DNA of 64,000 nucleotides from a bacterium. GTDB taxonomy: Bacteria; SAR324; NAC60-12. A program made the translations under genes and the position numbers. Below are positions 792 to 62,978 of the stretch, piece by piece (the stretch's first letter is position 1; the number at the start of each line of letters is the position of its first letter). The stretch spans positions 640,001 to 704,000 of the forward strand of contig CBDBHR010000029.1 in NCBI GenBank assembly GCA_965205865.1, read 5' to 3'. The notes under the pieces were generated by a model. It saw only the letters and a program-made list of their open reading frames with translations. It was not told the origin of the DNA and did no database searches.

Positions 792-1386
792 TACTATAGG
801 AACTACGGGATAGTTATTGCCTTTTAGGCCAACTACCATACCGTCATAGTTTTCCCCCCTGCAGCTAAGCATCGACATAAAAGTGGCAAACTCCACCTGA
901 TTAATCTCCAGCTCGATGCCAATCTCAGCAAGGTAGGAGGCAACTATTTGGGCCCACCCTACGTCCAGACCGCCGACCCATGAGTCGTTGATATGGTAGG
1001 TGGTCTTAAATCTAATGCCATCGGCACCAGGGGTATACCCAGCCTCATCAAGGAGTGCCTTTGCCTTTTCCGGGTTGTAGGTATGCTCCGCCTGAAGCTC
1101 TTCAGGCCACTCATCAAACGGTTTAAACCACCCGATAACGGCTGGCCCGCCAAAGCCCCTAGGTGTGGGGTCGGTTTTACCCTTGTAGTAGGTCTGGGAA
1201 ACGGTGGGGATGTCAATTGCCATCTGCATCGCCTTGCGCACCCTGTTGTCATCAAAGGGTGGCTTTGTGACGTTCAGGGCCATATTTTGCTTGTTTTGGC
1301 CTAACGGTCCTGCCCTGAATTGGAGTTCAGGGCTGTTCTCTATTAGACCCTCTGCCACTTTGGGTTCAACACCAATTAATATATCA
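792..1386 (-). pseudogene. Peptide/nickel ABC substrate-binding protein (SBP family 5), middle fragment between two IS1380 copies
   Basis: PPFDDNRVRKAMQMAID and YNPEKAKALLDEAGY motifs; continues 3083..4064 once the IS is removed. Confidence 0.88.
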
Positions 1387-3082
1387 CCTAAATCCTGCAA
1401 TTAGATGACAATCAAACATGGAAATGGTAATATACTCAAATAGTTAACAGCAGAATCAACATTTTAAGAGATCACCATTACCATGAAAAACAAAGGTAGC
1501 GCAAGATCGGCAAGAACGACAGCAAAAAACATCCATATCAGCCAGGGAGGCAGAGACCTGACCGCGCAAGCAGGCTTGATTCCGGTTGTCAAATTTTTTC
1601 ACAAAGAAGGGATTGTTTCAAAGACAGAGCAGACCGTAGATCATCGGCGTGGCGCCACGGGTCTTTATGACGCGGTGGACATGGTCATTTTGTCGGTGGT
1701 CGGCATTGTTGGTGGCGCCCGTTCGATTCGTTCGATTGTGACAGTTTGGAACGACCGTGTTTTGAGTCGTGTGGCCGGTTGGCTGAGGATTCCGGATGAA
1801 ACCACATTCGGCCGGATACTGCGTACTTTCACACAGAAAAACATCAATGAGATGGAGAGCTTGAACCATCGGATTCGAGCCGGTATCTGGCGTAAGGCGC
1901 TTCGAAGTGGGACAAGCATCGTTGGGGTGTTACACTGTCTTGTGATTGACGTGGACTCCACTGTGAAAACGGCCTACGGCAAGCAGCAAGGAGTGTCTGT
2001 CGGATATAATCCCCACAAACGCGGTGCAGCTTCGTATCATCCTCTGCTGGCATTTTGCGCAGAGACAAAGGAGATTCTTCAGGGTTGGCTTCGTGATGGG
2101 AGTGCCTATACCAGCAATGGAGTCGTTGAATTCATGCGGCAACTTCTCGCTCACCTTCCAAATCGGACTCGCACTCTGTTTCGTGGAGACAGTGGTTTTT
2201 TTGTGGGGGATTTGCTGGATTTCCTCGAAGAACGAGGCCATGGCTATCTGATCAAGGTCAAACTCAAGGGGCTTGTCTCGTTGTTGGAAACCCAAAAATG
2301 GCAAAAAGTGAAGGGGCAGCCCGCTTGGGAAGGGTGTGAGTTTTCCCACCAATGTGAAACTTGGAGGAGGTCAAGAAAATTCATGGCCGTACGCAGGGAG
2401 AAAGAGGAGGAACTCAAAGGGATGGCCACCCTCTTTGAGATGAAGGAGTACGATTATTTTTGTTATGTTCTCACTGACGCGCTCACTCCCTGGCAGGCTC
2501 ACAAAGAGTATGGCCAAAGGGCGGTCGCTGAGACATGGATTGAGGAAGCAAAAAATCAAACTGCGCTGGCTCAGATTAAAACCGACGATTTTTGGGCCAA
2601 CAGTGCCTTGTTCCAATGCGCGATACTCGCTTACAACACGCTGCGCTGGATGGCCCTTTGTAGTGGTAACGCAATACTGCGCCGTTGGGAACCGGCCACC
2701 ATGCGCACCTATCTTGTCCGAATGGCAGGAAAATGGACGAGTGGCGCTCGTCAACAAAAACTGAGAGTTCCGGAAAGAACACTTTACAATGCTCAATGGG
2801 ATGCATGGGTCGCTGTTGGAGAGACCTGGATCCTTTGTTTCACTCCAGTGGATACATTTTGCTGAGATGTAGATTCCCAAATCCAGGGAGAAGTACGTCT
2901 TGAATCTTGTGCCCGCGAAAGTGGGTATCAGATCATCACAAAATATGACGATCTAATGGAGGGCGGAAAAACCTTTATGAGCAAGGACTGATGGAAATTC
3001 AACTCTCAAATCCTTTTTTTTAAAAAAACCTCTCAAAGAGTGGGGGGAAACTCAATCAAAATATTCAATTGCAGGATTTAGG
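1387..3082 (+). mobile_element. IS1380-family insertion sequence, copy 2 (complete)
   Basis: 16-bp TIR CCTAAATCCTGCAATT / AATTGCAGGATTTAGG; 5-bp target duplication TATCA at 1382-1386 and 3083-3087. Confidence 0.93.
1483..2865 (+). CDS. IS1380-family DDE transposase
   Basis: 460 aa; IDVDST, YHPLLAF, RGDSGF and YGQRAVAETWIEEAK motifs. Confidence 0.92.
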   Translation: MKNKGSARSARTTAKNIHISQGGRDLTAQAGLIPVVKFFHKEGIVSKTEQTVDHRRGATGLYDAVDMVILSVVGIVGGARSIRSIVTVWNDRVLSRVAGWLRIPDETTFGRILRTFTQKNINEMESLNHRIRAGIWRKALRSGTSIVGVLHCLVIDVDSTVKTAYGKQQGVSVGYNPHKRGAASYHPLLAFCAETKEILQGWLRDGSAYTSNGVVEFMRQLLAHLPNRTRTLFRGDSGFFVGDLLDFLEERGHGYLIKVKLKGLVSLLETQKWQKVKGQPAWEGCEFSHQCETWRRSRKFMAVRREKEEELKGMATLFEMKEYDYFCYVLTDALTPWQAHKEYGQRAVAETWIEEAKNQTALAQIKTDDFWANSALFQCAILAYNTLRWMALCSGNAILRRWEPATMRTYLVRMAGKWTSGARQQKLRVPERTLYNAQWDAWVAVGETWILCFTPVDTFC

Positions 3083-4064
3083 TATCAAGTTTGCCCGAGC
3101 TTAACGCGGCTAGTCTTGTCCCCATGTCGGGCATGATCAATACTTCGGCTTCGTCAACATAGGGTAACCTGTTTTCCGGGTAACGGGGGTCATAGGCCCA
3201 GTAGTCGGGGTTCTTGGCGAAGGACCACGAGGAACCGTCGACATGGTCGATTATTATGAAAGGCCCGGTGCCGATGGCGTACCGCCAGTCGTTCATACTT
3301 CCGTACATGTCAATCGGTTCGCGCGGTACTATTAGCGCTACCTCCTCCTCGTATAAAATTGTCGTCAGCGCTATGGAGCTTGGCCTCGATAGCTTAAACT
3401 CAACAGTATATTCATCCGTAGCCGTTACGGATTCTATCGGTATATTGTCTATAGTAGCCGCCCTGTCAGATTGCCCAACCTCCTCAAACTCGCCAAGACC
3501 GGTTAGCCGCTCGAAGGTGTATTCGACATCTTTAGCCGTCAGCTCCCGACCGTTCACCGGAGGTTTATTCTGCCAGTGCACCCCTTGACGGATGTGAATG
3601 ATGATGGTGGTTGAGTCGGGCGTTTCCCAGCCTGTAGCAAGATGGGTCACCATAACCTCGAAGGGCATATACTTGCTCGTAAAGTCAAACATATCCCGGT
3701 CTACTTTGAAGTCACCGATAACCATCTTTTCTAAGAAGAAACCCGATAAGGCTCTGGCTTGGATGGCCTCGTAGTAGTCGGTAGTCTCAGTATCATCTAC
3801 CATAAAGGTGGTGATTTTGCCACCATACTGTGGCAGCCCTACCATCTTGCCGGTTGCCGGGTCTTTGACCATCTCGGCCGCAATGGCCGAACTACTCCAA
3901 AGGACGATCAGACCCAGGATGAGGGCTGGCAGGGTTGCACTGAAGGTTGATTTGCTTTTTTGATGATCCATCTTTTTCCTTTCGATTGCATGTTCAAAAT
4001 TAAGGATTGCTTTAAAACCTGCTTTCGGTCCCGAAAGCACGTTGTCGAGGATTTCTCTACCCAT
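3083..4064 (-). pseudogene. Peptide/nickel ABC substrate-binding protein, N-terminal part, IS-disrupted
   Basis: Signal peptide, PQYGG, HLATGWETPD, GVHWQNKPPVNGRELTA and GTGPF motifs. Confidence 0.9.
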
Positions 4065-4179
4065 TGGGTCTCCTTCATTTTGGAGTGATTAAAAACCGAT
4101 CCATTGGCTCCAGGATGGGGCCATGAACCCTGAGCTTTCAATGCTCTTGAGGAATTTCCATTGGCTGAAATGAACTGAG

Positions 4180-4270
4180 GTGAAATTTAAGGATCTCTTC
4201 CCCTCGGACTAGGCGTCGCTTCCGCGTACGGCCCCGTCGAGATAACATAAGGGGGGACAACCCAATGAAT
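4180..4270 (-). other. Conserved leader motif, copy A (candidate structured RNA)
   Basis: Homologous to 9488-9626, 18003-18076 and 50100-50180; always downstream of the same promoter and a heptamer array. Confidence 0.55.
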
Positions 4271-4371
4271 TTGGGGCTTAGGACTTAGAACTTGGAGCTT
4301 GGAGTTGGGTGCCGGGTGCTTGGATTTTGGAACTGTGACTGGGAACTAGGAACTAAGTGCAGGGTGCAGGA

Positions 4372-4400
4372 ATTGTACTCTCATATTAACCTCGTGTCAA
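4372..4400 (-). promoter_or_regulatory. Sigma70-type promoter TTGACA-17-TACAAT facing the SBP gene
   Basis: Near-consensus hexamers, 17-bp spacer, conserved in three other copies. Confidence 0.75.
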
Positions 4401-4479
4401 GTTATTTTTTATGCTCGAAACAGACATGTCATCTTAATTTCAGACTTTCTGACGGTACATCCGAAAAACGAAAGATCGC

Positions 4480-4997
4480 ATGATTGCCTTTCTGTCAGCC
4501 CAAGGCGATTTCGTTGAAAATTATCAAAAAAGAAATAGAAAAACAAGCCGAAATTCTTAAAAACCGTCAGCCCAAGGCGATTTCTTGAAAACGATCACAA
4601 AAGAACGATGATGGCAATATCCTGGTAGATTTCATTATCCCCTTCAGTATCCTCTCAATATAACAATGTTTAGAGGAGGTCAATCGATTTTTTTGCTCAT
4701 CTTAACTCCTCAGTGGCGAGTGCTTGTCTCATCCAGGACTTGATCCTCGCTCCTATTTGTATCAGTCTTTGAAAATAGCGAAGGCATCCTTCCAGCATAG
4801 TATAACAATATTTAGAGGAGGTCAATAGATTTTTTTGCTCATCTTAACTCCTCAGGGGCGAGTGCTTGTCTCATCCTGGACTTGATCCTCGCTGCTCTCT
4901 GTGTCAGTCCTTGAAAATACTGGGCAATCCTGCCCTTCCCGGAACGAAAAGCATGGGATTCAGAGCGCATCATTTCAAGGAGTGATGCGCACTCGGC
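4480..4997 (-). repeat. Upstream promoter-platform repeat with a tandem ~142-bp unit (small-gene 3' end + TTGACC -35 box)
   Basis: Homologous to ~51030-51675 and, inverted, to ~9028-9195; TTGACC-17-TACTAT at 4825-4797. Confidence 0.8.
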
Positions 4998-5141
4998 CAA
5001 TTGAAAATCAGGGATATGGGAAAGTTGTCTCTGGTCCTCATTCAATTGATAAAATTCAGTCCACTTAACAAGAAGATCCACCTGCGGAGCAAAGCGGAGT
5101 CAGGTGAAACGACTGGTTGGAAAATCCTGTCCCAAACTCAT
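4839..5141 (-). pseudogene. Small hypothetical protein with in-frame TGA at codon 14
   Basis: ATG at 5141 overlaps the regulator stop (ATGA) and is in frame with ORF 4839..5081. Confidence 0.5.
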
Positions 5142-5767
5142 CGATACTTTTTCTTTTTCTCGACAACGACTCCGATTATTCGGTATTGTGTATTCTTGCT
5201 CAGCTCAATGTCCTCATATTTAGCGTTCAATGGATGCAGTACCCTTACTTTTCCATATTTCTTTAATTGTTTGAAAGTTGCTTCCCACTCTTCATTACAA
5301 ACCACAATATAATCATTGTGCCCGGCCTTGAGATAAGGATTAATCACAATGATGTCTTCTTGATAAAATTCTGGTTCCATGCTATCTCCCCGAACCCGCA
5401 AAGCAAAAGTTCCTTTGGAGTCTGTCTCCATAAAATCCCCATCCTCCTGTTGGGAATTCGCGCATTCTCTCCAATGACCCGCCTGTGTCCATGCCAGGAT
5501 CGGGATCTGTTTGATCCTGCCTTTTTGTTCTGGTTTTCTCTCTACAGAAAGATAGCCTGTTTCTCTGAGAAATTCTTCAATTTCGATGCGATAAGTCTCC
5601 AAGAACCCCATCACCATCTCAAAGGAAGGCACACTGCTGCCGTTTTCTATGTCTCGGATGTGGGTATGAGAGACGCCTGAGAGCTGGGACGCTTGGCGCA
5701 GCGATAATCCTGCTTGATTCCTTTTCTCCTTTAAAAAGACTCCAATCGTTTTCATAGTGTAAATCAT
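5138..5767 (-). CDS. XRE-HTH / S24 peptidase (CI/LexA-like) transcriptional regulator
   Basis: N-terminal HTH (LSLRQASQLSGVSHTHIRDIENG); FALRVRGDSMEP and ATFKQL catalytic Ser/Lys motifs; start may be ATG at 5755. Confidence 0.9.
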   Translation of the reverse strand: MIYTMKTIGVFLKEKRNQAGLSLRQASQLSGVSHTHIRDIENGSSVPSFEMVMGFLETYRIEIEEFLRETGYLSVERKPEQKGRIKQIPILAWTQAGHWRECANSQQEDGDFMETDSKGTFALRVRGDSMEPEFYQEDIIVINPYLKAGHNDYIVVCNEEWEATFKQLKKYGKVRVLHPLNAKYEDIELSKNTQYRIIGVVVEKKKKYR

Positions 5768-5820
5768 ATCTTACTTTTTTATTGGGACCAATTTTATTTT
5801 AAATGTAAGATATATATTAC
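5759..5820. promoter_or_regulatory. Two GTAA-N8-TTAC palindromes, candidate operators of the adjacent repressor
   Basis: 5759-5774 and 5805-5820, at the regulator 5' end. Confidence 0.5.
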
Positions 5821-5895
5821 AATCATATATTTCTCAAGTTAAAGGACAAATTTCATGACAATGACACAATTCGAATATTTGAAATGAAAGATATA

Positions 5896-6390
5896 ATGAA
5901 CGAATAGGAGAATCATTCATTGATCTATAAGCGACGTCATCCCGAAAAAACAGAATACTATCGCATTATTTAAGCCAATTTTGAAGCATTTGAAAGGAAC
6001 TATCCGGAACTCTTTGAGGAGAATTATGGCTACCTGAGGAAAGACATCATGCCCGCCATTTACGCCTATCTGGACTGTGGAATTCCAGAGAACGGTGTGG
6101 CAAGGGTGAGGTGTGAATGTGGAGAAGACTTCTTTGTGGCTTTTTCCTGCAAAAAAAGAATGATTTGTCCCAGTTGCTCGACAAAAAGGTCCATCCTCTT
6201 TGGCGAGAAAGTCCGAGAAATCGTCAAGCCGTTTCCTCATCTTCATGTGACCTTTACTATCCCCAAAATCCTCAGAGGCTATTTCCGCAGAAACAGAAAA
6301 TTATTGAAATTGCTGACACAAAGTGCGAATTTCGCCATCAAACAATATTTTCACGAAACGTTAAGCATCAAGGACGGATATACTGGCGGA
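5896..6390 (+). pseudogene. IS91-family transposase, zinc-binding N-terminal fragment
   Basis: YLDCG..ARVRCECG..VAFSCKKRMICPSC..HVTFTIP; upstream in-frame stops; cut by IS256. Confidence 0.85.
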
Positions 6391-9195: not shown

Positions 9196-9405
9196 TCTCC
9201 CATTGGTCGAAATGACACGTTTTTTCTTTAAATCACGGGAAATCTCAAAGAGCCATGAAATCTACCAGGTTTTTGCCATCAAAGTTAATGAGTTGCCGTA
9301 TTTAAAGAAAAGCTTGAGAAACATTTCCAGAACGAGTAAACATATTTCCAATTTCCAAGGACAAAAGAGCAATTCAGAGAGTCACCATATTAAAAATAAT
9401 AAAGA

Positions 9406-9434
9406 TTGACAAAAGGGTAAAATGAGAGTAAGTT
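9406..9434 (+). promoter_or_regulatory. Sigma70-type promoter TTGACA-17-TAAGTT
   Basis: Homologous to 4372-4400; faces the group II intron/RAYT element. Confidence 0.65.
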
Positions 9435-9487
9435 CAAGCACTCAGTTCTAAGTTCCCAGTCACAATTTCCAAGTTTCAAATCCCAAG

Positions 9488-9626
9488 TTCATTGGGTTCT
9501 ACACCGTGGTGTCATCTCGATGGGGCCGTCGGTACGCCCGATACGCGCACGGTGGTCCGCATACGGCGCATCGGCGTACCGGAAGCGGCGCCTGGTCTTC
9601 AGGGAGGGATCCTTAAGATTCCTCGT
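9488..9626 (+). other. Conserved leader motif, copy B (with expanded internal hairpin)
   Basis: Matches copy A flanks; insert GGTACGCC...GGCGTACC is self-complementary. Confidence 0.5.
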
Positions 9627-9695
9627 TCCAAATTCCAAGCCCCAAGTCCTACGTTCCAAGTTTCAGGAACAGAAGGGCAAAAAAGGGGTCAGGCT

Positions 9696-10387
9696 GTGCG
9701 CCAGGAAAGCTGGCAAGAAATAGAGAGTGAAAGTCTCTTACTCGGTAAGGCAGTAACGACCCGCTGAGTCCCCGAGTCATGAGTGGTTATTCGCAAGGAT
9801 AGGCGCTAAGCGTTGACAGGGGAGAACATAGGCTCGGTATTGAGCTCCGAAATCATAGTTTCAGGCGCTGACCTTGTGGTCTGGTGGAAAAGGCAATATC
9901 AACCGAAGGCCTTAGCGTGAGTCTCGGCTGAGCCTGGCGGAGTCAAAGACCCGGTGCATGTGTGGAAGTTTCTTGATCGGAACCTGGGAGATCCTGAAGA
10001 CGACTGTCAACATTCTATTGGTAGTCGGATCGGGAAAATTAATAAATAACCCCGATATCTACGTCTTCAGGAAGTCGGACAAGTTCGTAGTAGCGATGAA
10101 GCGGCGAACAATGAGATAATTTGCAGAGAGTAACAATGCAAAGGAAATCAACGGAGCCTGTGGAGCAAAGGGACTTGGCTGAGAGGAATTCTGCTTGCCC
10201 TCCTGTGTTCGGAACTCAGAGGCCGGTAAAATCAGAGAGCGGTTTAAGCAGGGTGCGCCAAACGGCAACGTTTGAGCGTCTGACTCGAAGCAGGAGCCGG
10301 ATGCGTTAGCAGCGCACGTCCGGATCTGTACTGGAGGAATGACGAAAGGTGGCTGGAAACCACTATAAGTCAGTTCTTTACGGTGAC
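9696..10387 (+). ncRNA. ORF-less group II intron (692 nt)
   Basis: 5' GTGCG; domain V GAGCCGGATGCGTTAGCAGCGCACGTCCGGATC (10294-10326); domain VI ending ..GGTGAC; typical domain I-III motifs (GTATTGAGCTCCGAAA, GGAACCTGGGAGATCC, GGAAGTCGGAC, GGAGCAAAGGG); no RT ORF. Confidence 0.9.
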
Positions 10388-10459
10388 TTTGATTAAATTG
10401 TATTTTGTTAAATTCTATGGTTAGCATTGCTCCAGACTTGAGAGCAACCGAGAGGAAAA

Positions 10460-11304
10460 ATGGCAAGAAAACGAAGAGTTCATTAACCGGGAGCGGTCTA
10501 TCATGTGATGCTTCGTGGCAATGGGGGGCAGGGCTTTTTTTTGATGATGATCGTTTTTATTTTGGAGAGTTACTTTTGGAGGGAGTGGCGCGTTTTGAAC
10601 ATCGTATCCACGGGTTTTGTTTTATGGGCAATCATGTTCACTTGGTGGTTCAAGTGGGTGTGATTCCGCTGTCTCGCATTGTTCAAAATGTGTCATTTCG
10701 TTATACTCGCTGGATCAACAAAAAACAAAAACGGATGGGAAATTTGTTTCAGAGGCGCTATAAAGCGATTTTAGTGGATGCCGATCAGTATTTATTAGAG
10801 TTAATTCGCTATGTTCACCTGAATCCGATTCGGAACGGGCTCGTCAACGATCCGAAACAATATTTTTGGTCAAGCCATGCCGTGTATACGGGAAAGAGAA
10901 AGATGCCTTGGGTTCATACAGAGTGGGTTCACGCTCAATTTTCCAGGCACTCAGGTCATGCTCGACGGATGTATCGTCGCTATGTTGAGGAAGCTATGGA
11001 GGACACCCTACCCCCCGAGTTCGAAAAAGGGAATAAAGAAGGAAGGATTTTGGGAGATGATCACTTTGCGGAAAGTGCATTACAACAAGCGGGAGAGCCC
11101 ATTCACCAAACATTGGAGTTGGAAGTCTGGGGAGAGCGTTGTGGTCGAGATGGTGTCACCTTAAGCAATGCCATTCAAATTTTGCTAAAACGCACCAAAA
11201 CAGACAAAGATTTGGTAAACAGAATGAAAGAAATTGAGGAAAAACTATTAATCTCTTTCGGGTCTAACTCGCCGCAGCCGCTCAGCGTACCGTTGCTGCG
11301 TTGA
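10460..11304 (+). pseudogene. REP-associated tyrosine transposase (RAYT, Y1 HUH)
   Basis: MARKRRVH*PGAVYHVMLRGN, then a frameshift; FCFMGNHVHL (HUH), LFQRRYKAILV, YVHLNP, WSS. Confidence 0.88.
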
Positions 11305-11435
11305 AAAAAAGATAATCCGACAAAATACTCCGCTCGAGCGAAGCGAAAGTCGAGCCTCAACGAGAGAGCATGCTTCAGGATAGTTTATTTGAATAATGAA
11401 ACGTCAAATGAAATAATAAAAGGCCTGACCCCATT

Positions 11436-11810
11436 TTGCGCCATATCCTGATTCTCCATGTCCTGCCCAATATTATGGCGCCGATCATCATCATCTTCTC
11501 GATCAACATTGGCGGCGTCATCATTGCCGAGGCGTCGCTGAGCTTCCTCGGATTCGGGTTACCCCTCAAGATTCCCAGTTGGGGAGGAATGCTCAGCCGG
11601 GAAGGGCGTCAGTTCATGGAGATTGCCCCCCGGCTGGCGCTCTGGCCGGGGCTTTGTCTGACTCTTGTCGTCTACTCCCTCAACATGTTCGGCGACGCGG
11701 TGAGAGACCTGCTCGATCCCCGGTTGAGGGGCAGTGGGGGCCGTTATAGCACCACGATGAAACGCAAACGAGGCCTCCTGGCCCGACTGATCAACCCTTT
11801 CAATGGGTAA
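11436..11810 (+). pseudogene. DppC/OppC-type ABC permease, C-terminal fragment
   Basis: HVLPN..EASLSFLGFG..GDAVRDLLDPR; begins 3 nt after the TGACCCC end. Confidence 0.88.
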
Positions 11811-16012: not shown

Positions 16013-17764
16013 CCCTGCAATTAGCAGTGTACCATCAAACATGGAAATGTAATAGTACTTGAATAGTTAACCCAGTTTCAACATTTTAACCTAGATCACC
16101 AATTGACCATGAAAAACAAAGAGTAGCGCAAGATCGGCAAGAACGTTTTTTTAAAAAAATCCATTTGAGCCAGTTGATTTCCATCAGTCCTTGCGCAAGC
16201 AGGCTTGATTCCGCCCTCCATTAGTCGTCAAATTTTTTCACAAAGAAGGGATTGTTTCGCGGGACAGAGCAGACCGTAGATCATCGGCGTGGCGCCATTT
16301 GGGTCTTTATGACGCGGTGTATCCATGGTCATTTTGAAACGGTGGTCGGCATTGTTCTGGCGACCCATGCGATTCGTTCGATTGTGACAGTTTGGAACGA
16401 CCGTGTTCTTGAGTCGTGTGGCCGGTTTTTGAGGATTCCGGATGAAACCACATTCGGCCGGATTTTACTGCGTACTTTCACACAGAAAAAGTCGCATGAG
16501 ATGGCCGAGCTTGAACCATCGGATTCGAGCCGGTATCTGGCGTAAGGCACTTCGAAGTGGGACAAGCATCGTTGGGGTGTTACACTGTCTTGTGATTGAC
16601 GTGGACTCGCACTGTGAAAACGGCCTGTTGGCAAGCCAAGGAGTGTCTGTCGGATATAATCCACACAAACGCAGGTGCAGCTTCGTCAATCATCCTCTGC
16701 TGACCGCATTTTGGCCATACTCAAAGGAGATTCTTCAGGGTTGGCTTCGTGATGTGAGTGCCTATACCAAAAATGGAGTCGTTGACTCCTTCATCTCAAA
16801 GAGGGTGCGGCAACTTCTCGAGTCACCTTCCAAATCGGACTCGCACTCTGTTTCGTGGAGACAGTGGTTTTTTTGTGGGGGACCATTGCTGGATTTCCTC
16901 GAAGAACGAGGCCATGGCTATCTGATCAAGGTCAAACTCAAGGGGCTTGTCTCGTTGTTGGAAACCCAAAAATGGCAAAAAGTGAAAGCCCGCTTGGGAA
17001 GGGTTTGAGTGATTAGCCACCAATCGTGAAACTTCGAGGAGGTCAAGAAAATTCATGGCCGTACGCAGGGAGAAAGAGGAGGAACTGTCTCAAAGGGATG
17101 GCCACCCTCTTTGAAGATGAAGAAGTACGATGAATTTTTGCTGGTTATGCACTCATCACTGAAGCTCACTCCCTGGCAGGCTCACAAAGAGTATGGCCAA
17201 AGGGCGGTCGCTGAGACATGGATGAGGAAGCAAAAAATCAAACTGCGCTGGTGGGGATTAAATCCGACATTTTTGGGCCAACAGTGCCTTGTTGCTTGCG
17301 CGATAGGCTCGTTTTCAACACGCTGGAGTCCACGTCCCTTTGTAGTGTAAACGCAATACTGCGCTTGGGAACCGGCCACCATGCGCACCTATCTTGTCCG
17401 AATGGCAGGAAAATGGACGATGGCGCTCGTCAACAAAAACTGAGAGTTCCGGAAAGAACACTTTACAATGCTCAATGGGATGCATGGAATCGCTGTTGGA
17501 GAGACCTGGAACCTTTGTTTCACTCAATACATTTTGCTGAGATGTAGTTCCAAATCCAGGGACAAGTACGTCTTGAATCTTGTGCGCCACCAAGCGGGTA
17601 TCAGACCATCGACAAAATATGACGCGTCTAATGGAGGGCGGAAAAACCTTTATGATCAAGGACTGATGGAAATTCAACTCTCAAATCCTTTTTTTAAAAA
17701 AACCCGGAATCAAAGAGGGGTCAGGTCTCTGCCTCAATGGCAAAATATTCAATTGCAGGATTTA
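16013..17764 (+). mobile_element. IS1380 copy 3, riddled with indels (probable consensus artefact)
   Basis: Colinear with 1387-3082, with many 1-3 nt indels and a duplicated flank. Confidence 0.75.
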
Positions 17765-42767: not shown

Positions 42768-43332
42768 GATCGTTTGGAATCATGACAATAACCCTGACTG
42801 CCCTTATACACCTTTCTAAGAGAATGGAAAGTCAATCAATGATGGATTTCATTCACCTGTTTGCCAAGGCGCATACATTACTTTGATGGATAAATTTACA
42901 CCAATGAGATGATATTCTCTTCCAACCCGAAAATAAAAGAGGAAATCGGCTGCCACTTTCCTCTATGGTTTCCCGGGATGGCCTCTTTCCATTCCAAATG
43001 CCGGAACTCGAGTTTGGCACCTTCTAAAATACCGATGCTCTCCCTCTCGAGTGTTGTTACCCTGAAAACCGGGGGAAACGCACCGGAAAACGCCGTCTAT
43101 TTGCAAAATAACAACACTCCAGAGGGTCAATTTTACTGAGAACAGACACCAACACTCCAGAGGGTGATTACCCATGAAAGAGGGTTCTCTTTTTATCCTC
43201 TTGTGAAGAAAATGAGGTCAGCTTCCACATTGGTTTCCATTCAAAAAATGAGAAATCACATGAAGAACTGGTAAAAAAGAGAGGAGGTGATTATACTCAA
43301 ATGCCAATGTCCAACCAATCGGAGCGAAAACT

Positions 43333-44217
43333 ATGACAGAGAAACGAATCATCCGTTTTGACTGGGCTATCAAAACGGTCCTACGCGATAAAGCCAATTT
43401 TGATATTCTGGAAGGGTTTCTGACGGCTCTCCTCAAGGAAGAGATCCGCGTGGTTTCCCTTTTAGAGAGTGAGAGCAATAGCGCGGAGGAACAACAAAAG
43501 TTCAATCGGGTGGACCTACTGGTGAAGGATTCTCGAGACCGTCATTTAATTATTGAAATTCAAAATCAGCAGGAAGCGGATTATTTGGAAAGACTGCTCT
43601 TCGGAACCTCGAAGGTGATTGTCGAAAACCTGCCACTCGGAGAGACCTACGATCAGATCAAAAAAGTCATTTCCATCAGTATTCTATACTTCAACCTGGG
43701 TTTGGGAAAGGATTATGTTTATTATGGAAAGACGGAATTTCGTGGCATCCATAGCAATGATCTCTTAAAAATCCGTGAGAAAGTCAAAGGTCCTGATCAT
43801 CTCACTCATCTTCAAGCAAAAAAGAACCTCTTTCCTGAATACTACTTGATCCGTGTGGAGAGCTTCCAGGATATGATCGAAGCAGACTTGGATGAATGGA
43901 TCTATATGTTAAAACACGAATCCATCAAGTCGGAATTTAAATCGAAGCACATTCGTGAAGCCGGGAAAAAATTAGACCTTTTGAAAATGGGTTCTGAAGA
44001 ACGCAAACGTTATGAAAGGTATCTTATGCATTTGGTTTCGGAACGAGGAATCATCGAGACAGCAAAAGCAGAGGGGAGAGAAGAAGGAATCGAAAAAGGA
44101 ATCGAAAAAGGAATCGAAAAAGGAATCGCTGACATGGCAAGAGAAATGAAACAAAAAGGGATTGATCTAAAAATGATCAGTGAAATTTCCGGATTGTCTC
44201 CGGAGGAGATTGAATAA
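43333..44217 (+). CDS. Rpn family PD-(D/E)XK nuclease / putative transposase, copy 1
   Basis: RFDWAIK, RVDLL..IIEIQ; GIEK x3. Confidence 0.9.
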   Translation: MTEKRIIRFDWAIKTVLRDKANFDILEGFLTALLKEEIRVVSLLESESNSAEEQQKFNRVDLLVKDSRDRHLIIEIQNQQEADYLERLLFGTSKVIVENLPLGETYDQIKKVISISILYFNLGLGKDYVYYGKTEFRGIHSNDLLKIREKVKGPDHLTHLQAKKNLFPEYYLIRVESFQDMIEADLDEWIYMLKHESIKSEFKSKHIREAGKKLDLLKMGSEERKRYERYLMHLVSERGIIETAKAEGREEGIEKGIEKGIEKGIADMAREMKQKGIDLKMISEISGLSPEEIE

Positions 44218-44271
44218 TTATAAGATCCTCTTACTTCTTTCCTAAAACGAGCTAACCATCAGCTTTAGCCC

Positions 44272-44500
44272 ACCAATCCGGTGAATGCGCTGTGGATGGT
44301 TCCCGGGACCCACCAGCAGGACGAGCTCGATATCGTCGCACGGATCCAGGCCAATGGGGGGTCGGATCGTCTCCCGGGGGCCGTCCCGATGCTGTGTCAA
44401 CCGGGCGATGTGGTGATCATGAACCGCCAGGTGTTGCATGGACCCTTTGCCAACACCTCGCCGGTCATGCGGGCGACTTAACAGTTTGGCTTTCACAGTA
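44272..44500 (+). pseudogene. PhyH-family internal fragment (also ~54908-55133 and ~62393-62621)
   Basis: ALWMVPGTH..PGDVVIMNRQVLHG.FANTS. Confidence 0.75.
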
Positions 44501-44504
44501 GAGA

Positions 44505-44745
44505 AGTCCGCGACCAGGCGTCCCCGCGCCTCACAGTAATGTGGGGTATAAAGCCGGATGGACCAAGAGTGTAGACCTCGTCATTGAGCCCCGAAAGCGA
44601 AGGATCATGTTGGAGGAAAGCCGACAGCCTTCAAGTGTCGGAAGGCAGCAGTCCGAGTGCGCATCAAAGGGCTGGCACAAGGACACCACCGAAAGGTCGA
44701 CCCCGCAGGCTCGAAGAGCGGGGCATGCGCTCATATGAGTAAAGT
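44505..44745 (+). ncRNA. Group II intron domain I fragment (also ~55138-55375 and ~62625-62865)
   Basis: ATTGAGCCCCGAAA..GCCGAC..GGAAGGCAGCA..AAGAGCGGGGCATG, in the same order as domain I motifs of the 9696 intron; no 5' GTGCG or domain V. Confidence 0.65.
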
Positions 44746-44863
44746 AAGCAAAAGTCACCCCGCAGACTTGACCCCTTTACTGAGCATCCCCCCAGTTGGG
44801 AACATCGGGTGGTAAGCCCAGTCCAAGGAAGCTCAGCGCGGCCTCCCACAAAGGGAGAGATTC

Positions 44864-47958: not shown

Positions 47959-49767
47959 CTAATGACCCATGGCTTTCTTCAGCTCACTATCAATCCAGAG
48001 ACGGGCGAAGAGGTTAGCATATCTATTATTAACCCCCAAGTCATATTCACCGTTGAAACCTATAACCCACGGCTGGTACACCAGAAAGTTTGGAACTCTA
48101 GGACCCCACCAGAACCAGTGGTTCTCTAACGCGTACATATTGATCTCTTTAGACAACCTGATTTTCTCTTCCATGTCCAGAGTGGCTCCGGCGGCGTCCA
48201 TCATGGCGTCCAGTTCCGGGATGCTAATCCCCGGGTAGTTCGCTATTGCATCCGTGTAAAGATGTGCCTGGAAAACATTAAGGGGGTCGGTATAATCGAA
48301 GCCCATCGCCAATCCACCGGCCAGACCTTTAAAAAGTTGGTTACGTATATTAGCTATAAAAGTGGCGCTCTCGAGTACCATGACCTCTACATCAACGCCA
48401 ATCTCACGCCAGTACGCAGCGTATAATTCATCATCGCCTGGATCGAGACCGGTCCCGATTTGCAAGACGGTCTTGAATCTAATGCCATCCGCGCCGCGCG
48501 GATATCCAGCCGCATCAAGCAACGCTTCTGCCCCTTCCGGGTCATAGATATAGTATTGCTTGACCTCTTCAGGCCACTCTTCAAATGGGACGAAATAATC
48601 CGTAAGGCCTGTCCCTATAAACCCCTGAGGTATCCAATCTGCAAGACCCTTATAGTAGGTCTGGTTCATTGACTCAAGGTCCAGTGCCATCTGCATCGCG
48701 TGGCGCACCCTGATGTCGTCAAAGGGCGGCTTCGTAGTGTTATAGGCACCAGACGTCTCCGACCGAATCGAAAAAGGCCAGAACACGAGTTCGGGGTTGG
48801 TCTCCTTGAGCCTCTCCGCCGTGTCGATAGATCCTATTTGAGCACCTCCACTATTTTCCAGGAAATCGACCACACCCGTGCGCAGTGCCGCTATTCGTGT
48901 TGCCTCTTCTCTCATAAGCAGAGATATGGTCTCGTCAACATAGGGCAGGCGGTTCTCCGGGTATTTTTCGTCAAAGCCCCAGTAGTCAGGATTCTTGATC
49001 CAGGTGATAGAGACGTCATCGGTAAAGTCAGTCAGCATAAAGGGCCCGGTGCCGACCATGTTCCTCCAGTCCGCAACATCACCGTGTTCCTCGATTACCT
49101 CGGGGGAGTTTATAGCAGCACGGGAGTTGAGGAGGATATCACTCAGTCCAGCGAGGGATGGCTTCTCGAGCTTAAAAACAACCGTCCAATCGTCGGTGGC
49201 CGTTACCGATTCGAATCTCGCTGAGAATCTATGTGCTGGGGTAGGTCCGGCTTCACTGAACTTGCCCAGTCCCATTAGACGCTGCCAGTTATATACGACA
49301 TCATCGGCAGTTAGCTCCCGACCGTTCACCGGTGCCTTATTATGCCAGCGAACGCCCTTCCGGATGTGGAAGATTATCGTTGTGTCGTCGGGCGTTTCCC
49401 AGCTTTCCGCCAGCACCCCTTTCATGTTAGACATAGGTACGAACATGCTCTTGAGGTTAAAGACACTCCTGTCCACTCCCCAGTCCGCGATTGCTAGCCT
49501 CTGTACAACGCCGGAGGTGAGGACAGTCCCGCCAGAGAACCAGGAATCACTAGTCGGAGGTTCGGAGATACGAGCCCAGGTTAATGTCCCGCCATACTCT
49601 GGCGCGCTCACCACCTTGCCGGTGGTGGGGTCGGTCACATACTTCTTCTCCGCAGCAACGGCTGCCAAACCAGTCCAAAGGACGATCAGACCCAGGATGA
49701 GGGCCAGCAGGGTTCCACTGAAGGTTGATTTGCTTCTTATCTTTTTCATGATAATTTCCTTTCCCAA
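47959..49767 (-). CDS. Peptide/nickel ABC substrate-binding protein (family 5)
   Basis: Signal peptide, PEYGG, LAESWETPD, GTGPF, PPFDDIRVR; start probably ATG 49749. Confidence 0.93.
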   Translation of the reverse strand: MGKEIIMKKIRSKSTFSGTLLALILGLIVLWTGLAAVAAEKKYVTDPTTGKVVSAPEYGGTLTWARISEPPTSDSWFSGGTVLTSGVVQRLAIADWGVDRSVFNLKSMFVPMSNMKGVLAESWETPDDTTIIFHIRKGVRWHNKAPVNGRELTADDVVYNWQRLMGLGKFSEAGPTPAHRFSARFESVTATDDWTVVFKLEKPSLAGLSDILLNSRAAINSPEVIEEHGDVADWRNMVGTGPFMLTDFTDDVSITWIKNPDYWGFDEKYPENRLPYVDETISLLMREEATRIAALRTGVVDFLENSGGAQIGSIDTAERLKETNPELVFWPFSIRSETSGAYNTTKPPFDDIRVRHAMQMALDLESMNQTYYKGLADWIPQGFIGTGLTDYFVPFEEWPEEVKQYYIYDPEGAEALLDAAGYPRGADGIRFKTVLQIGTGLDPGDDELYAAYWREIGVDVEVMVLESATFIANIRNQLFKGLAGGLAMGFDYTDPLNVFQAHLYTDAIANYPGISIPELDAMMDAAGATLDMEEKIRLSKEINMYALENHWFWWGPRVPNFLVYQPWVIGFNGEYDLGVNNRYANLFARLWIDSELKKAMGH

Positions 49768-49917: not shown

Positions 49918-50099
49918 TTTTTGGTCATCTCCATAATTTTTCCTTTCTTGTTATGTAACTATTCAGGTCTCTGAAAAACCCGTTCGATATATTTCGTTAG
50001 AGTAAGGAGCGTATTTGCCGCGTTCCTGCTGCTCTGCGGAGTGCTCTACAAATTCCCCATTGGCCTTCCGTTCCAGGAATTTGGAACGTGGGATTTGGG

Positions 50100-50180
50100 G
50101 CTTGGAACTGGGAAACTTAAGGATCTCTCCCCCTCGGACTGGGCGCCGCCGTTGAGACGATACCAAAGGGTAGAACTTGT
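50100..50180 (-). other. Conserved leader motif, copy D
   Basis: TTCTACCCTTT..TCTCAACGGCGGCGCCCAGTCCGAGGGGGAGAGATCCTTAA on the minus strand. Confidence 0.55.
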
Positions 50181-50240
50181 GATTTGTGAATTGGAGTTTG
50201 TGATTGGGAACGTTGAGCTTGTTGCTCGGATCTAATTATA

Positions 50241-50307
50241 CTGGGAGCTGGGAGCTGGGAGCTGGGAGCTGGGAGCTGGGAGCTGGGAGCTGGGAGCTGG
50301 GAGCTGG
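50241..50307. repeat. Perfect heptamer tandem repeat (CTGGGAG)x9
   Basis: Direct count; lies just downstream of the minus-strand -10 box at 50314-50319. Confidence 0.95.
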
Positions 50308-53796: not shown

Positions 53797-55402
53797 CATG
53801 AAAGAGGGTTCTCTTTTTATCCTCTTCTGAAGAAAATGAGGTCAGCTTCCACATTGGTTTCCATTCAAAAAATGAGAAATCACATGAAGAACTGGTAAAA
53901 ACGAGTGGAGGTGATTATACTCAAATGCCAATGTCCAACCAATCGGAGCGAAAACTATGACAGAGAAACGAATCATCCGTTTTGACTGGGCTATCAAAAC
54001 GGTCCTACGCGATAAAGCCAATTTTGATATTCTGGAAGGGTTTCTGACGGCTCTCCTCCAGGAAGAGATCCGCGTGGTTTCCCTTTTAGAGAGTGAGAGC
54101 AATAGCGCGGAGGAACAACAAAAGTTCAATCGGGTGGACCTTCTGGTGAAGGATTCTCAAGACCGTCATTTAATTATTGAAATCCAAAATCAGCAGGAAG
54201 CGGATTATTTGGAAAGACTGCTCTTCGGAACCTCGAAGGTGATTGTCGAAAACCTGCCACTCGGAGAGACCTACGATCAGATCAAAAAAGTCATTTCCAT
54301 CAGTATTCTTTACTTCAACCTGGGTTTGGGAAAGGATTATGTTTATTATGGAAAGACGGAATTTCGTGGCATCCATAGCAATGATCTCTTAAAAATCCGT
54401 GAGAAAGTCAAAGGTCCTGATCATCTCACTCACCTTCAAGCAAAAAAGAACCTCTTTCCTGAATACTACTTGATCCGTGTGGAGAGCTTCCAGGATATGA
54501 TCGAAGCGGACTTAGATGAATGGATCTATATGTTAAAACACGAATCCATCAAGTCGGAATTTAAATCGAAGCACATTCGTGAAACCGGGAAAAAATTAGA
54601 CCTTTTGAAAATGGGTTCTGAAGAACGCAAACGTTATGAAAGGTATCTTATGCATTTGGTTTCGGAACGAGGAATCATCGAAACAGCAAAAGCAGAGGGG
54701 AGAGAAGAAGGAATCGAAAAAGGAATCGAAAAAGGAATCGAAAAAGGAATCGAAAAAGGAATCACTGACATGGCAAGAGAAATGAAACAAAAAGGGATTG
54801 ATCTAAAAATGATCAGTGAAATTTCCGGATTGTCTCCGGAGGAGATTGAAAAATTATAAGATCCTCTTACTTCTTTCCTAAAACGAGCAAACCATCAGCT
54901 TTAGCCCACCAATCCGGTGAATGCGCTGTGGATGGTTCCCGGGACCCACCAGCAGGACAAGCTCGATATCGTCGCACGGATCCAGGCATGGGGGTCGGAT
55001 CGTCTCCCGGGGGCCGTCCCGATACTGTGTCAACCGGGCAATGTGGTGATCATGAACCGCCAGGTGTTGCATGGACCCTTTGCCAACACCTCGACGGTCA
55101 TGCGGGCGACTTAGCAGTTTGGCTTTCACAGTAGAGAATTCCGCAACCAGGCGTCCCCGCGCCTCACAGAAATGTGGGGTATAAAGCCGGATGGACCAAG
55201 AGTGTAGGCCTCGTCATTGAGCCCCGAAAGCGAAGGATCATGTTGGAGGAAAGCCGACAGCCTTCAAGTGTCGGAAGGCAGCAGTCCGAGTGCGCATCAA
55301 AGGGCTGGCACAAGGACACCACCGAAAGGTCGACCCCGCATCGAAGAGCGGGGCATGCGCTCATATGAGTAAAGTAAGCAAAAGTCGGGACTTGACCCCT
55401 TT
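53797..55402 (+). repeat. Rpn module, copy 2
   Basis: Bounded by TGTCCCCTT (53788) on the left and TGACCCCTT (55393) on the right. Confidence 0.92.
53957..54859 (+). CDS. Rpn family PD-(D/E)XK nuclease, copy 2
   Basis: Near-identical to copy 1; GIEK x4. Confidence 0.9.
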   Translation: MTEKRIIRFDWAIKTVLRDKANFDILEGFLTALLQEEIRVVSLLESESNSAEEQQKFNRVDLLVKDSQDRHLIIEIQNQQEADYLERLLFGTSKVIVENLPLGETYDQIKKVISISILYFNLGLGKDYVYYGKTEFRGIHSNDLLKIREKVKGPDHLTHLQAKKNLFPEYYLIRVESFQDMIEADLDEWIYMLKHESIKSEFKSKHIRETGKKLDLLKMGSEERKRYERYLMHLVSERGIIETAKAEGREEGIEKGIEKGIEKGIEKGITDMAREMKQKGIDLKMISEISGLSPEEIEKL

Positions 55403-55499
55403 ATTGGGGATGGCACTCTGTGTGGTGACGCCTGGATGAGAAGGGGGCAAAAAAACTGGACTCATTCCTAATCAAATAATCAAAGGCCTGACCCCATCT

Positions 55500-55587
55500 C
55501 TCATGACTCGGGGACTCGGCGGGTCGTTACTGCCTTACCGAGTAAGAGACTTTCACTCTCTATTTCTTGCCAGCTTTCCTGGCGCAC
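55500..55587 (-). ncRNA. 5' 88-nt fragment of the 9696 group II intron at a second site
   Basis: Reverse complement matches 9696-9783 with one mismatch; upstream exon is GGGGACAGGTT. Confidence 0.88.
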
Positions 55588-55627
55588 AACCTGTCCCCAT
55601 CTCTCGCCGTCATTGGTATCCCTGAGC

Positions 55628-58811: not shown

Positions 58812-59004
58812 AGTCCCGGAGGGACGAAAGGTCATAGCTCAGCCATTGATGGCTGGGGACCGATTTTTATGATGGATCCAGTCCCGGAGGGACGACACTT
58901 AAAGCGCACTGAAGAAAAAGTGTCGTCCCTCTGGGACTAAAAACGTTTTGTGGCCTATCCCAGCCATAAATGGCTGGGATAGGCCCTGTCACCCCTCCGG
59001 GGTT
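58812..59004. repeat. REP-like palindrome cluster
   Basis: GTCCCGGAGGGAC x2, GTCCCTCTGGGAC, CAGCCA-N4-TGGCTG x2. Confidence 0.75.
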
Positions 59005-60481: not shown

Positions 60482-60817
60482 GTGATTATGGCTCAGTTAT
60501 CTTTATACAGTGACTCTATGCTGACAAATCGGTACCAAACCACAATACCGGATATGGTAAGAAAAGCACTTCATTTAAAAAAACGCGATAAGATCCTTTA
60601 TACTCTTCAAGCTGATGGAACGGTAATGATATCTCGTGCGGATCAGGATGAAAACGATCCTGTTTTGTCTCAGTTCTTATCCTTTCTAGCAAAGGATATC
60701 AGCCAAAACCCTAAAAACGTAAGTTCCCTAGGCTCTGATTTGGTTGAGCGCATCCGGCCCCTCGTCTCTAGCGTTGAAATAGACCTAAATACCCCTCTTT
60801 CTGATGAGGATGATTAA
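60482..60817 (+). CDS. prlF: PrlF/SohA-family antitoxin
   Basis: LTNRYQTTIP..VRKAL..DPVLSQFLSFLAKDI. Confidence 0.88.
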   Translation: MIMAQLSLYSDSMLTNRYQTTIPDMVRKALHLKKRDKILYTLQADGTVMISRADQDENDPVLSQFLSFLAKDISQNPKNVSSLGSDLVERIRPLVSSVEIDLNTPLSDEDD

Positions 60818-60819
60818 GT

Positions 60820-61313
60820 GTGACAAAAGTAAAATCTTTAGTCATCAAGGGGTGGAATATATTTGGCCATGCTTTATTCTTAGACCAAGTGGAATCGCTC
60901 ATCGAGCAAGTGGAATTGCTACGCCAGAAAGATCCTGTCCATTACAAAAAAAAGAATGTGACAAAACGTCTTGCAACCATTTTGAGGCTAGCTTTTGAAA
61001 TCATCCCTCAAGATCCCACTCTTCCGGAGTATCGTCAAGGAATGACGCTCGGAGATCCTCACAAACATTGGTTTCGGGTAAAATTCTTTCAGCAATATCG
61101 GCTTTTTTTCGATATCACTTAGAAAGCAAGGTCATTGTTTATGTTTGGGTGAATGATGAAAGGACGAAACGAGCATTCAACCGGAAAACAGATGCTTATC
61201 GAATATTTAAGAAAATGCTGGAAAAGGGACATCCCCCTAATAATTGGGAACAGCTGATCAAAGAAGCTAAAACCGAAACAACCCGTCTCAAAAAAGCGAT
61301 TGGTGAAAAATGA
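60820..61313 (+). pseudogene. yhaV: YhaV-family toxin, frameshift in a T7 run at ~61103-61109
   Basis: IPQDP..YRQGMTLG..HWFRVKFFQQYRLFF / RY..IVYVWVNDE..DAY. Confidence 0.85.
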
Positions 61314-62893: not shown

Positions 62894-62978
62894 ACTGAGC
62901 ATCCCCCCAGTTGGGAACATCGGGTGGTAAGCCCAGTCCAAGGAAGCTCAGCGCGGCCTCCCACAAAGGGAGAGATTC

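Follow-up and report, generated by a model that had tools for sequence, protein, structure and literature searches.

The window, by which we mean the whole 64-kb stretch of DNA that was analysed, carries an element of the RAYT (HUH tyrosine transposase) type whose left terminal repeat is split by a group II intron, and at 55.5 kb it carries a short piece of the same intron next to a further element end. The features of the two sites are as follows.

9681–9695, plus strand: AAAAGGGGTCAGGCT, the outermost 15 nt of the element's left terminal repeat, which form the 5′ exon; flank homology stops at 9680
9688–9695, plus strand: predicted IBS1, GTCAGGCT, pairing with EBS1
9696–10387, plus strand: complete ORF-less group II intron, GUGCG...GAC (RF02005, RF00029, no ORF, 89.7% identity to the copies in MAG OZ242383.1)
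9878–9885, plus strand: predicted EBS1, GGUCUGGU, lying in the first Id hairpin loop; its pairing partner is the exon from −8 to −1, with a 6-nt core at 9878–9883
9914–9920, plus strand: loop of the second hairpin, AGCGUGA, with CG..GCGAG flanks conserved in all relatives; not EBS1 (helix of at least 5 bp with its own exon in 1 of 9 introns)
10294–10327, plus strand: predicted domain V (34 nt), with an A instead of a U opposite the G of its AGC triad
10331–10387, plus strand: predicted domain VI, with the branch-point A bulged at 10380 (consensus fold and coordinates)
10388–10411, plus strand: inner part of the left terminal repeat, TTTGATTAAATTG..., which forms the 3′ exon; matches the reverse complement of the right end
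10460–11304, plus strand: probable RAYT pseudogene with the HUH motif NHVHL present (Pfam PF01797, NCBIfam NF047646, frame reading)
11413–11436, minus strand: right terminal repeat, AAATGGGGTCAGGCCTTTTATTAT, without intron (string comparison)
55467–55499, minus strand: complete, unoccupied element end abutting the intron stub, AGATGGGGTCAGGCCTTTGATTATTTGATTAGG (AGATGGGGTCAGGCC + TTTGATTATTTGATTAGG); 28/33 to the RAYT right end
55500–55587, minus strand: intron stub, nt 1–88, with 1 mismatch to 9696–9783 (alignment; sub-threshold RF02005 match)
55588–55602, minus strand: motif copy before the stub, AGATGGGGACAGGTT, ~25 nt past the surE stop codon (sequence reading)

The host element and its intron

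The host element is ~1.76 kb long. Its edges were placed at about 9681 and 11436 because the paralogous flank sequences end there: the left flank is homologous to a copy of an opp-operon leader (50060–50114, minus strand) up to 9680, and the right flank is homologous to three oppC paralogues from about 11441. The terminal repeat flanks the RAYT gene as inverted copies, and a solo copy is also present at 55467–55499. With the intron excised, AAAAGGGGTCAGGCT is joined to TTTGATTAA, and 20 of the 24 positions (hand count) then agree with the reverse complement of the right end, AAATGGGGTCAGGCCTTTTATTAT (11436–11413), which bears out the claim of a first-pass annotation of this DNA that removal of the intron restores the left end as an inverted match of the right end. 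The insertion point lies 15 nt inside the left terminal inverted repeat, and the intron runs in the same direction as the RAYT gene. That gene is broken: the downstream ORF spans 10405–11304 and its true start is the ATG at 10460, but the frame is interrupted by an in-frame TAA at codon 9 and by a frame change near a T-run at ~10535–10542. Pfam PF01797 scores 42.1 bits on this ORF (cut-off 23), and NCBIfam NF047646 scores 59 bits, below its cut-off of 80 and over profile positions 46–146 only (the C-terminal two-thirds). No REP hairpin (imperfect palindrome) was found at the right end or the solo end, whose DNA folds have z values of 0.87 and 0.40, respectively, relative to shuffled sequences. 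The motif GGGGWCAGG occurs five times in the 64-kb window versus 0.92 expected, and none of 100 shuffles reached five.

The intron itself is complete. It extends over 692 nt (9696–10387, plus strand), starting with GTGCG (9696–9700) and ending with GTGAC, and thus has both a GUGYG-type 5′ terminus and an AY-type 3′ terminus. Predicted domains V and VI were located together with the bulged branch-point A at 10380, 8 nt before the 3′ end of the intron, in agreement with the first-pass description of a complete intron from GTGCG through domain V to AC. The covariance-model check proposed with that description gave a split result. RF02005 (group-II-D1D4-6) matches 9730–9952 over the full model (1–225) with 151.8 bits against a cut-off of 49 (E = 1.4e-43), whereas RF00029 (domain V/VI) matches 10292–10387 with 29 bits, below its cut-off of 40. 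The low RF00029 score arises partly from the G·A pair in domain V, which is also found in all MAG copies and in two RT-encoding relatives (L001 and L007) that score 40.3–40.4 bits with this model. Because the pair is common to RT-encoding relatives at the cut-off, it appears to be typical of the RF02005 intron type and not a sign of decay.

The relatives are eight RF02005-type plasmid loci, five of which have complete annotated RT ORFs, the others being partial or degraded. All eight match RF02005, with 137–200 bits. Among plasmid matches in general, none exceeds 73% identity to the window intron apart from D5 matches of 46–51 nt. The five RTs contain RVT_1 and no HNH endonuclease domain (5/5), and one has a sub-threshold maturase domain.

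The window intron is ORF-less, as had been claimed. All six frames are filled with stops, and tblastn with the RT proteins of six relatives detected nothing resembling an RT domain in the intron, elsewhere in the 64-kb window or in 24 kb of MAG loci; RVT_1 was likewise absent from the 51 ORFs of the window. The RT-encoding parent that the first-pass annotation had proposed to look for was accordingly not found in the window or in the MAG loci. What tblastn does pick up around the gap in domain IV are weak matches (E 7e-5 to 0.34) to the two ends of the ORFs annotated in the relatives, namely the first ~40 and the last ~22 codons. The lack of an RT-domain match together with these weak remnants of ORF ends around the gap suggests that 9696–10387 is an internal-deletion derivative of a mobile group II intron of the RF02005 structural type. 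The Rfam family carries no label for an RT class (A–F, CL or ML), and the relatives are not named in the available portion of PMC3552965. A promoter previously placed at 9406 (TTGACA, 17 nt, TAAGTT) is absent from the output of a consensus scan, which gives 9373–9400 (plus strand). Within the window, no further copies or 3′ fragments of the intron were found with blastn-short (E up to 1), and a sensitive Rfam scan returned only the 88-nt stub and a second, diverged family, which lies at 44.5, 55.1 and 62.6 kb.

Recurrence at the tips of RAYT-type repeats

In this comparison the source genome is represented by the 64-kb window and MAG OZ242383.1 by 24 kb of sequence. The MAG was identified by scanning genome contigs for the exact 22-mer at the 5′ end of the intron, a scan that would miss copies with a changed 5′ end and that gave four matches, all in this one chromosome, which is not from the window's genome. 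Three of the four are full-length ORF-less introns, 89.5–89.8% identical to the window copy. Their upstream flanks are identical and they lie in a duplicated unit of ~2.5 kb (95–97% identity over 1.5–2.7 kb); given these shared flanks and the segmental duplication, we count them as one insertion event. They stand behind AAAGGGGGTCTGGCT and before TGATGGAAAATTA, which is followed by the start of a degenerate RAYT-like gene, and this position is the same spot of a diverged RAYT-type end as in the window. The RAYT-like remnants have 37–49% protein identity over 34–62 residues and have lost the HUH motif. The RAYT genes behind the intron are broken in both genomes.

The fourth MAG match, L002, is an 88-nt stub, and the window has a stub of the same kind. 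As the first-pass annotation had noted, a second copy of the 5′ 88 nt is present at 55500–55587 on the minus strand, with one mismatch, behind a different exon that carries the same motif: the 5′ exon of the stub, GGGGACAGGTT, differs from GGGGTCAGGCT of the full intron at 2 of 11 positions, and the flanks further upstream are unrelated. The annotation had also raised the possibility that the 55.5-kb piece was copied from the insertion at 9.7 kb and that its flank has since mutated. This is not the case, since the upstream flanks are unrelated and the downstream structure is different.

A comparison of the 5′ exons of homologues, also proposed at the outset, shows a consistent pattern among the close copies. 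In all four separate loci (window 9695/9696, window 55588/55587, L002 and L003/L004) the intron sequence is directly preceded by GGGGNCNGGYT, and all four (4/4) lie at the tip of a RAYT-type terminal repeat. The right ends are unoccupied in both elements (2/2; window 11424–11432 and L004 position 1987). These counts rest on two full-length insertion events and two stubs, and the sample is small.

The window and MAG introns are 89.7% identical, and this similarity ends with the intron. In global alignments, identity is 0.50 over the 100 nt before the motif (shuffle mean 0.51) and 0.56 over the 100 nt after the intron (shuffle mean 0.52). The inner repeat sequences also differ between the two genomes (TTTGATTA.. 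versus TGATGGAA..). Within the intron, divergence is highest in D2 and D4 (15–17%) and is only 4–5% in D5 and D6; paired positions changed less often than unpaired ones (7.5% versus 14.3%), and most changes in helices preserve pairing. Because ~90% identity falls to the shuffle level exactly at both intron borders, the two introns seem to have been inserted independently, into elements that had already diverged, and the pattern is hard to reconcile with one ancient insertion.

The 88-nt stubs

In both genomes the stub breaks off after nt 88 (..GAGTCATGAG), and the next nucleotide is already the first base of a complete element end. The end in the window (55499–55467), AGATGGGGTCAGGCC|TTTGATTATTTGATTAGG, shares 28 of 33 positions (hand count) with the RAYT element's right end. 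This intact end directly after the stub had been missed in the first-pass annotation. The L002 stub stands behind GGTAGGGGGGCAGGCT and runs directly into AAGGGGGTCGGGCC TGGAAGTTTGGC, which is an end of the MAG type; the stub has changes that break a loop and a stem. The element end at each stub is thus of the type of that stub's own genome.

Several origins were considered for the stubs and rejected. Incomplete reverse transcription removes the 5′ parts of introns, not the 3′ parts, and a product of this kind would have lost its 5′ part, whereas here the 3′ part is missing. A plain target duplication does not fit, because the flanking motif copies differ at 3 of 18 positions versus 1 of 88 in the stub (p about 0.015). 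Nor do the stubs look like one inherited accident, each being joined to the inner-end type of its own genome.

A more speculative reading, which we put forward tentatively and consider somewhat unlikely, is that the composite of motif, nt 1–88 and empty end arose separately in the two genomes as the trace of a so far undescribed reaction in which a retroelement and an HUH element took part. Two routes are possible on this reading: (i) the tyrosine transposase may have joined an element end to a pseudo-site in intron DNA; or (ii) a group II RT may have switched template onto a fragment of precursor RNA ending at nt 88, which lies inside a long helix. If this reading were true, the intron lineage would, in a wider sense, be a hyperparasite of RAYT-type elements, putting them out of action by splitting their ends. 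Another possible origin of the stubs is the insertion of a piece of ~100 nt that duplicated a short target, GAGAGAT in the window and GAAGG in L002. Of all these results, the recurrence of the 88-nt stub is what would surprise a specialist.

Target recognition and mode of arrival

To locate EBS1, nine introns were compared: the window intron, the MAG copies and the seven relatives with a settable 5′ end. The loop of the first Id hairpin forms a helix of at least 5 bp with its own exon in 7 of the 9, versus 10% of non-self combinations. In six of the seven relatives, which are of the RT-encoding type, this loop provides 5–7 nt of pairing anchored at −1, and the exon ends that it pairs with are mutually unrelated (CGAUUA, CAAUG, ACAAG, GGACGG, ACAGU and CGCUUA). 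We therefore place EBS1 of the window intron, on the strength of this comparison, at 9878–9885. The first-pass annotation had proposed the loop of the following hairpin, AGCGTGA (9914–9920), as a candidate EBS1. Its pairing with TCAGGCT at 6 of 7 positions had been counted correctly, but this second loop does not track the exon in the relatives (at least 5 bp with its own exon in 1 of 9 introns versus 7 of 9 for the first loop) and was rejected.

The predicted EBS1 of the window intron, GGUCUG(GU), makes 8 contiguous pairs, G·U included, with the exon GUCAGGCU; against (GU)CAGGCU the pairs are G·U, G–C, U·G, C–G, U–A, G–C, G·U and U·G. In the MAG copies the corresponding sequence is AGCCUG(GU), which is perfectly complementary to CAGGCU, the exon found at the window copy and at L002, but has one U·U mismatch, at position −5, with its own site, CUGGCU. 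EBS1 thus differs between the genomes by two changes, A to G and C to U, and pairing is preserved by each of them. Unoccupied sites with 8 contiguous pairs to the window EBS1 are found at the right end (11424), at 55487 and at 17717.

A search for EBS2 in eight introns, in which the whole of domain I was screened for 5-nt helices with the exon from −7 to −20, gave no recurring alignment column, and no EBS2–IBS2 pairing was found for positions −11 to −9 (GGG). The segment GNCCCC (intron nt 76–81) is complementary to the exon GGGGNC but was discarded as EBS2, as it sits in a helix that is invariant in all relatives. With no EBS2–IBS2 pairing found, the GGGG common to the four sites has no assigned reader; positions −11 to −9 may be contacted by the RT, or they may be shared since the targets are related ends.

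Taken together, we consider it likely that this ORF-less intron reaches the tip of RAYT-type terminal repeats by base-pair-guided retrohoming, probably by means of an RT acting in trans. In the proposed mechanism, an RT made by a related intron elsewhere in the genome would splice and carry the ORF-less intron RNA, which would then reverse-splice into GUCAGGCU|U at exposed element ends. The insertion would part the 15-nt tip from the inner repeat, and the element would probably be disabled and decay. Because their repeat tip is cut off from the remainder of the end, invaded elements are likely to be immobile, and such disabling fits both the broken RAYT genes in the two genomes and what the available text of PMC5894124 reports for RmInt1 in ISRm2011-2.

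Several observations weigh against retrohoming: (i) No RT gene was found in the 64-kb window or in the 24 kb of MAG loci. (ii) The three sites that pair equally well with EBS1 (11424, 55487 and 17717) are unoccupied. (iii) The right ends are unoccupied in 2/2 elements. (iv) The three full MAG copies result from segmental duplication, not homing. (v) The MAG intron has a U·U mismatch at −5 of its own site. (vi) No EBS2–IBS2 pairing was found in the window intron or its relatives.

Part of this evidence would also be expected if the intron had entered an ancestral RAYT element only once and had hitch-hiked ever since by transposition, duplication or descent, with the motif being no intron target at all. 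The three full MAG copies do lie within a duplicated ~2.5-kb unit, the two full-length events occupy the same place in the same direction relative to the RAYT gene, and the window and the MAG loci yielded no RT. If an end with the intron in it had transposed, a new flank just outside the motif would be seen as well. We nevertheless regard a single entry as unlikely. Identity drops from 89.7% to the shuffle level at both borders, though even the least constrained parts of the intron differ by only 15–17%, and the inner repeat sequences are unlike between the genomes. In the window, the motif of the stub has 2 differences in 11 positions versus 1 in 88 for its intron part (Fisher p 0.03), and EBS1 stays complementary to the exon despite the two changes between genomes.

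Base-pair-guided retrohoming could also belong entirely to the past. The intron would then be a dead relic that neither splices nor moves at present, and its conservation between the two genomes would stem from a recent horizontal transfer in which the end region moved as a whole. In both genomes the host RAYT gene is a pseudogene, the L002 stub has loop- and stem-breaking changes, the RF00029 score is below the cut-off, and no RT was found in the window or the MAG loci, all of which agree with such a state. However, paired positions changed half as often as unpaired positions (7.5% versus 14.3%), D5 and D6 differ by only 4–5% between the genomes, most helix changes are pair-preserving, and the low RF00029 score is common to RT-encoding relatives (40.3–40.4 bits, with the same G·A pair). 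These signs of constraint make a dead relic, in our judgement, quite improbable.

A further question is whether the site is read as a structure. Introns of the IIC-attC group home into integron attC sites, and the first-pass annotation had drawn an analogy to them. As in that group, the window intron belongs to a family tied to recombination sites of another mobile system. According to the available text of PMC12584367, IIC introns recognise a hairpin in the DNA together with an IBS1 that is very short. The window site differs in both respects: no stem-loop precedes the sites, the DNA folds of the 70 nt upstream of the four sites having z values of −1.08, 0.97, 0.50 and −0.17 relative to shuffles, and the predicted EBS1–IBS1 helix is 6–8 bp long. 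No terminator-like site was found upstream of 9696. Since no hairpin precedes its sites, the window intron is unlike IIC-attC introns in its targeting, and the analogy fails. IIC-like recognition of a folded, single-stranded element end, rather than of its sequence, would suit the action of HUH elements on single-stranded DNA, the lack of an endonuclease domain in the relatives' RTs (5/5) and the lack of an EBS2 partner, but it is very improbable given four of four sites without an upstream stem-loop (z −1.08 to 0.97), ends that fold no better than shuffles (z 0.87 and 0.40), no terminator-like site upstream, and a 6–8 bp EBS1–IBS1 pairing that tracks the exon across relatives, as is typical of sequence-guided homing. 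The terminal-repeat motif may nonetheless be used as single-stranded DNA, for which the endonuclease-less RTs of the relatives (5/5) offer indirect support.

Implications and comparison with known introns

An intron lineage with ~90% identity in two genomes, at one nucleotide position of a RAYT-type repeat, provides a defined test case both for RT-in-trans mobility and for the ways in which HUH elements fall prey to retroelements. It also singles out the tip of the repeat as being exposed often enough to be hit, which bears on the use of the poorly understood RAYT-type ends.

Most bacterial group II introns are found in intergenic DNA or in other mobile elements, as stated in the available text of PMC12584367. 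An association with repeats of the RAYT/REP type has been reported for Pseudomonas putida KT2440, in which two of nine group II intron copies adjoin REP sequences (PMC1525189, available text). That association is loose (22%), with no fixed position given in the text at hand, whereas the position of the window intron is fixed to the nucleotide. In the accessible literature on group II introns and REP or RAYT sequences, we found no description of an intron homing into, or fixed in, such ends.

RF02005-type introns on proteobacterial plasmids, for example those of Cupriavidus taiwanensis (NZ_CP016951.1, ltrA WP_018003737.1) and Roseibium aggregatum (NZ_CP045620.1), have their domain I architecture and EBS1 position in common with the window intron, and the D5 G·A pair is shared where it is readable (L001 and L007). 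The plasmid introns are, however, only 67–73% identical to the window intron over the first ~300 nt, carry an RT/maturase ORF that the window intron lacks, and have exons unrelated to that of the window, with EBS1 changed to match.

A precedent for the target comes from RmInt2 of Sinorhizobium meliloti GR4, all copies of which are located in the inverted repeats of ISRm17, with a lagging-strand bias (PMC4615759 and PMC5894124, available text). As with the window intron, a single family of mobile elements hosts all copies reported there, in its terminal inverted repeats, and the likeness extends to base-pair-guided homing, an RT without endonuclease and invaded elements that are thought to be blocked. 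The first-pass statement that the window intron is specialised on the ends of HUH elements agrees with the position of 4/4 loci at RAYT-type tips, but it reduces to a homing site of a kind for which RmInt2 in ISRm17 is a precedent in the available text of PMC4615759. There are also differences from RmInt2 as described in these accounts: its host is an insertion sequence, ISRm17, whereas that of the window intron is a RAYT/HUH element; it is reported in both repeats, whereas here only left ends are occupied (2/2; right ends 0/2); and the window intron has no RT gene and no identified EBS2. The window intron is also not close to RmInt1-type RNA by blastn, with no Sinorhizobium among the 10 genera (25 records) in the matches listed.

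In its form, the window intron resembles another group. Group II introns that lack an ORF are uncommon in bacteria, according to the available text of PMC4424553, but those of Thermosynechococcus elongatus are described as being mobilised by the RTs of related introns (PMC2882425, available text). In these introns, as in the window intron, the RT ORF of domain IV has been deleted internally, leaving N- and C-terminal remnants, and the compact ribozyme of about 0.7 kb is common to both. Compared with T. elongatus as portrayed in that source, no driver RT is seen here and few copies are known, and the targets are the ends of a transposon, in contrast to the intergenic sites and other introns that are hit there. 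On these comparisons, the window intron appears to be closest to RmInt2 in behaviour and to the ORF-less introns of T. elongatus in form.

Cargo possibly bounded by the RAYT-type end motif

Three copies of a ~1.6-kb repeat in the window carry a PDDEXK_2 ORF together with a diverged fragment resembling group II intron domain I (Rfam model RF02005).

Copies of the ~1.6-kb repeat and their cargo
About 43200-44781: copy 1; PDDEXK_2 ORF 43333-44217; intron fragment 44503-44703 (+), Rfam match below cut-off
About 53830-55413: copy 2; PDDEXK_2 ORF 53957-54859; intron fragment 55136-55336 (+), Rfam match below cut-off
About 61300-62902: copy 3; PDDEXK_2 ORF 61431-62345; intron fragment 62624-62841 (+), Rfam match below cut-off

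The left border of the repeat is AAAATGAGGTCAGCTTCC and its right border is GGGACTTGACCCCTTTA; these are inverted, imperfect copies of a motif of the kind found at the ends of the RAYT (HUH tyrosine transposase) element. Because of this resemblance, the RAYT-type end motif may delimit several cargo units. An additional copy, GGGGTCAGGTC, lies at 17717-17727 (+), immediately 3' of a DDE_Tnp_1_4 repeat copy (17627-17705); it pairs over 8 nt with EBS1 of the main ORF-less intron, yet is unoccupied.

The three fragments score 25.8-27.5 bits against RF02005, under the cut-off of 49, and are copies of a second such sequence, far more divergent than the main intron. Each starts ~34 nt 5' of the model match, reading ATGCG rather than GTGCG, and ends after roughly 310 nt. 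These sequences may point to another intron family in the source genome, which may possibly be a source of RT.

Duplication of the intron-bearing end in a second genome

In the MAG OZ242383.1, whose ORF-less introns are ~90% identical to the window's, the RAYT end that carries the intron lies within a ~2.5-kb unit, of which there are two copies in tandem and a third elsewhere.

Regions of the ~2.5-kb unit
MAG locus L004, reverse complement, 1000-6014
MAG locus L003, reverse complement, 2662-5543

The copy number of this end in the MAG was raised by DNA duplication, not homing. Window segment 31760-31882 is ~80% identical to a segment within the duplicated unit.

Mobile DNA and an opp operon around the RAYT element

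Mobile DNA content is very heavy across the window, L003 and L004, where transposase genes or fragments represent six or more families: DDE_Tnp_1_4 (twice), Mutator, IS91 zinc domain, IS110, IS1595 and DDE_Tnp_1_6. Other features include four oppC-like paralogues or fragments, a PrlF/YhaV pair (60482-61122) and an Acido-Lenti-1 RNA at 58812-58857 (-) (41.3 bits; cut-off 37). This RNA gives a clue to the type of organism.

Copies of the leader-like repeat
9406-9680: copy 1
50060-50300 (-): copy 2

Heptamer-type repeats (TTCCAAG and variants) flank a GC-rich core in this repeat, at 9488-9610 in the first copy and shorter in the second, which has an oppA-like gene downstream (47959-49767, -). No Rfam match was found in the leader region 9400-9700. 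The RAYT element has the leader-like repeat on one side and, on the other, an oppC paralogue of which the 3' portion is present (11441-11810), so that about 3.5 kb of an opp operon is absent there.
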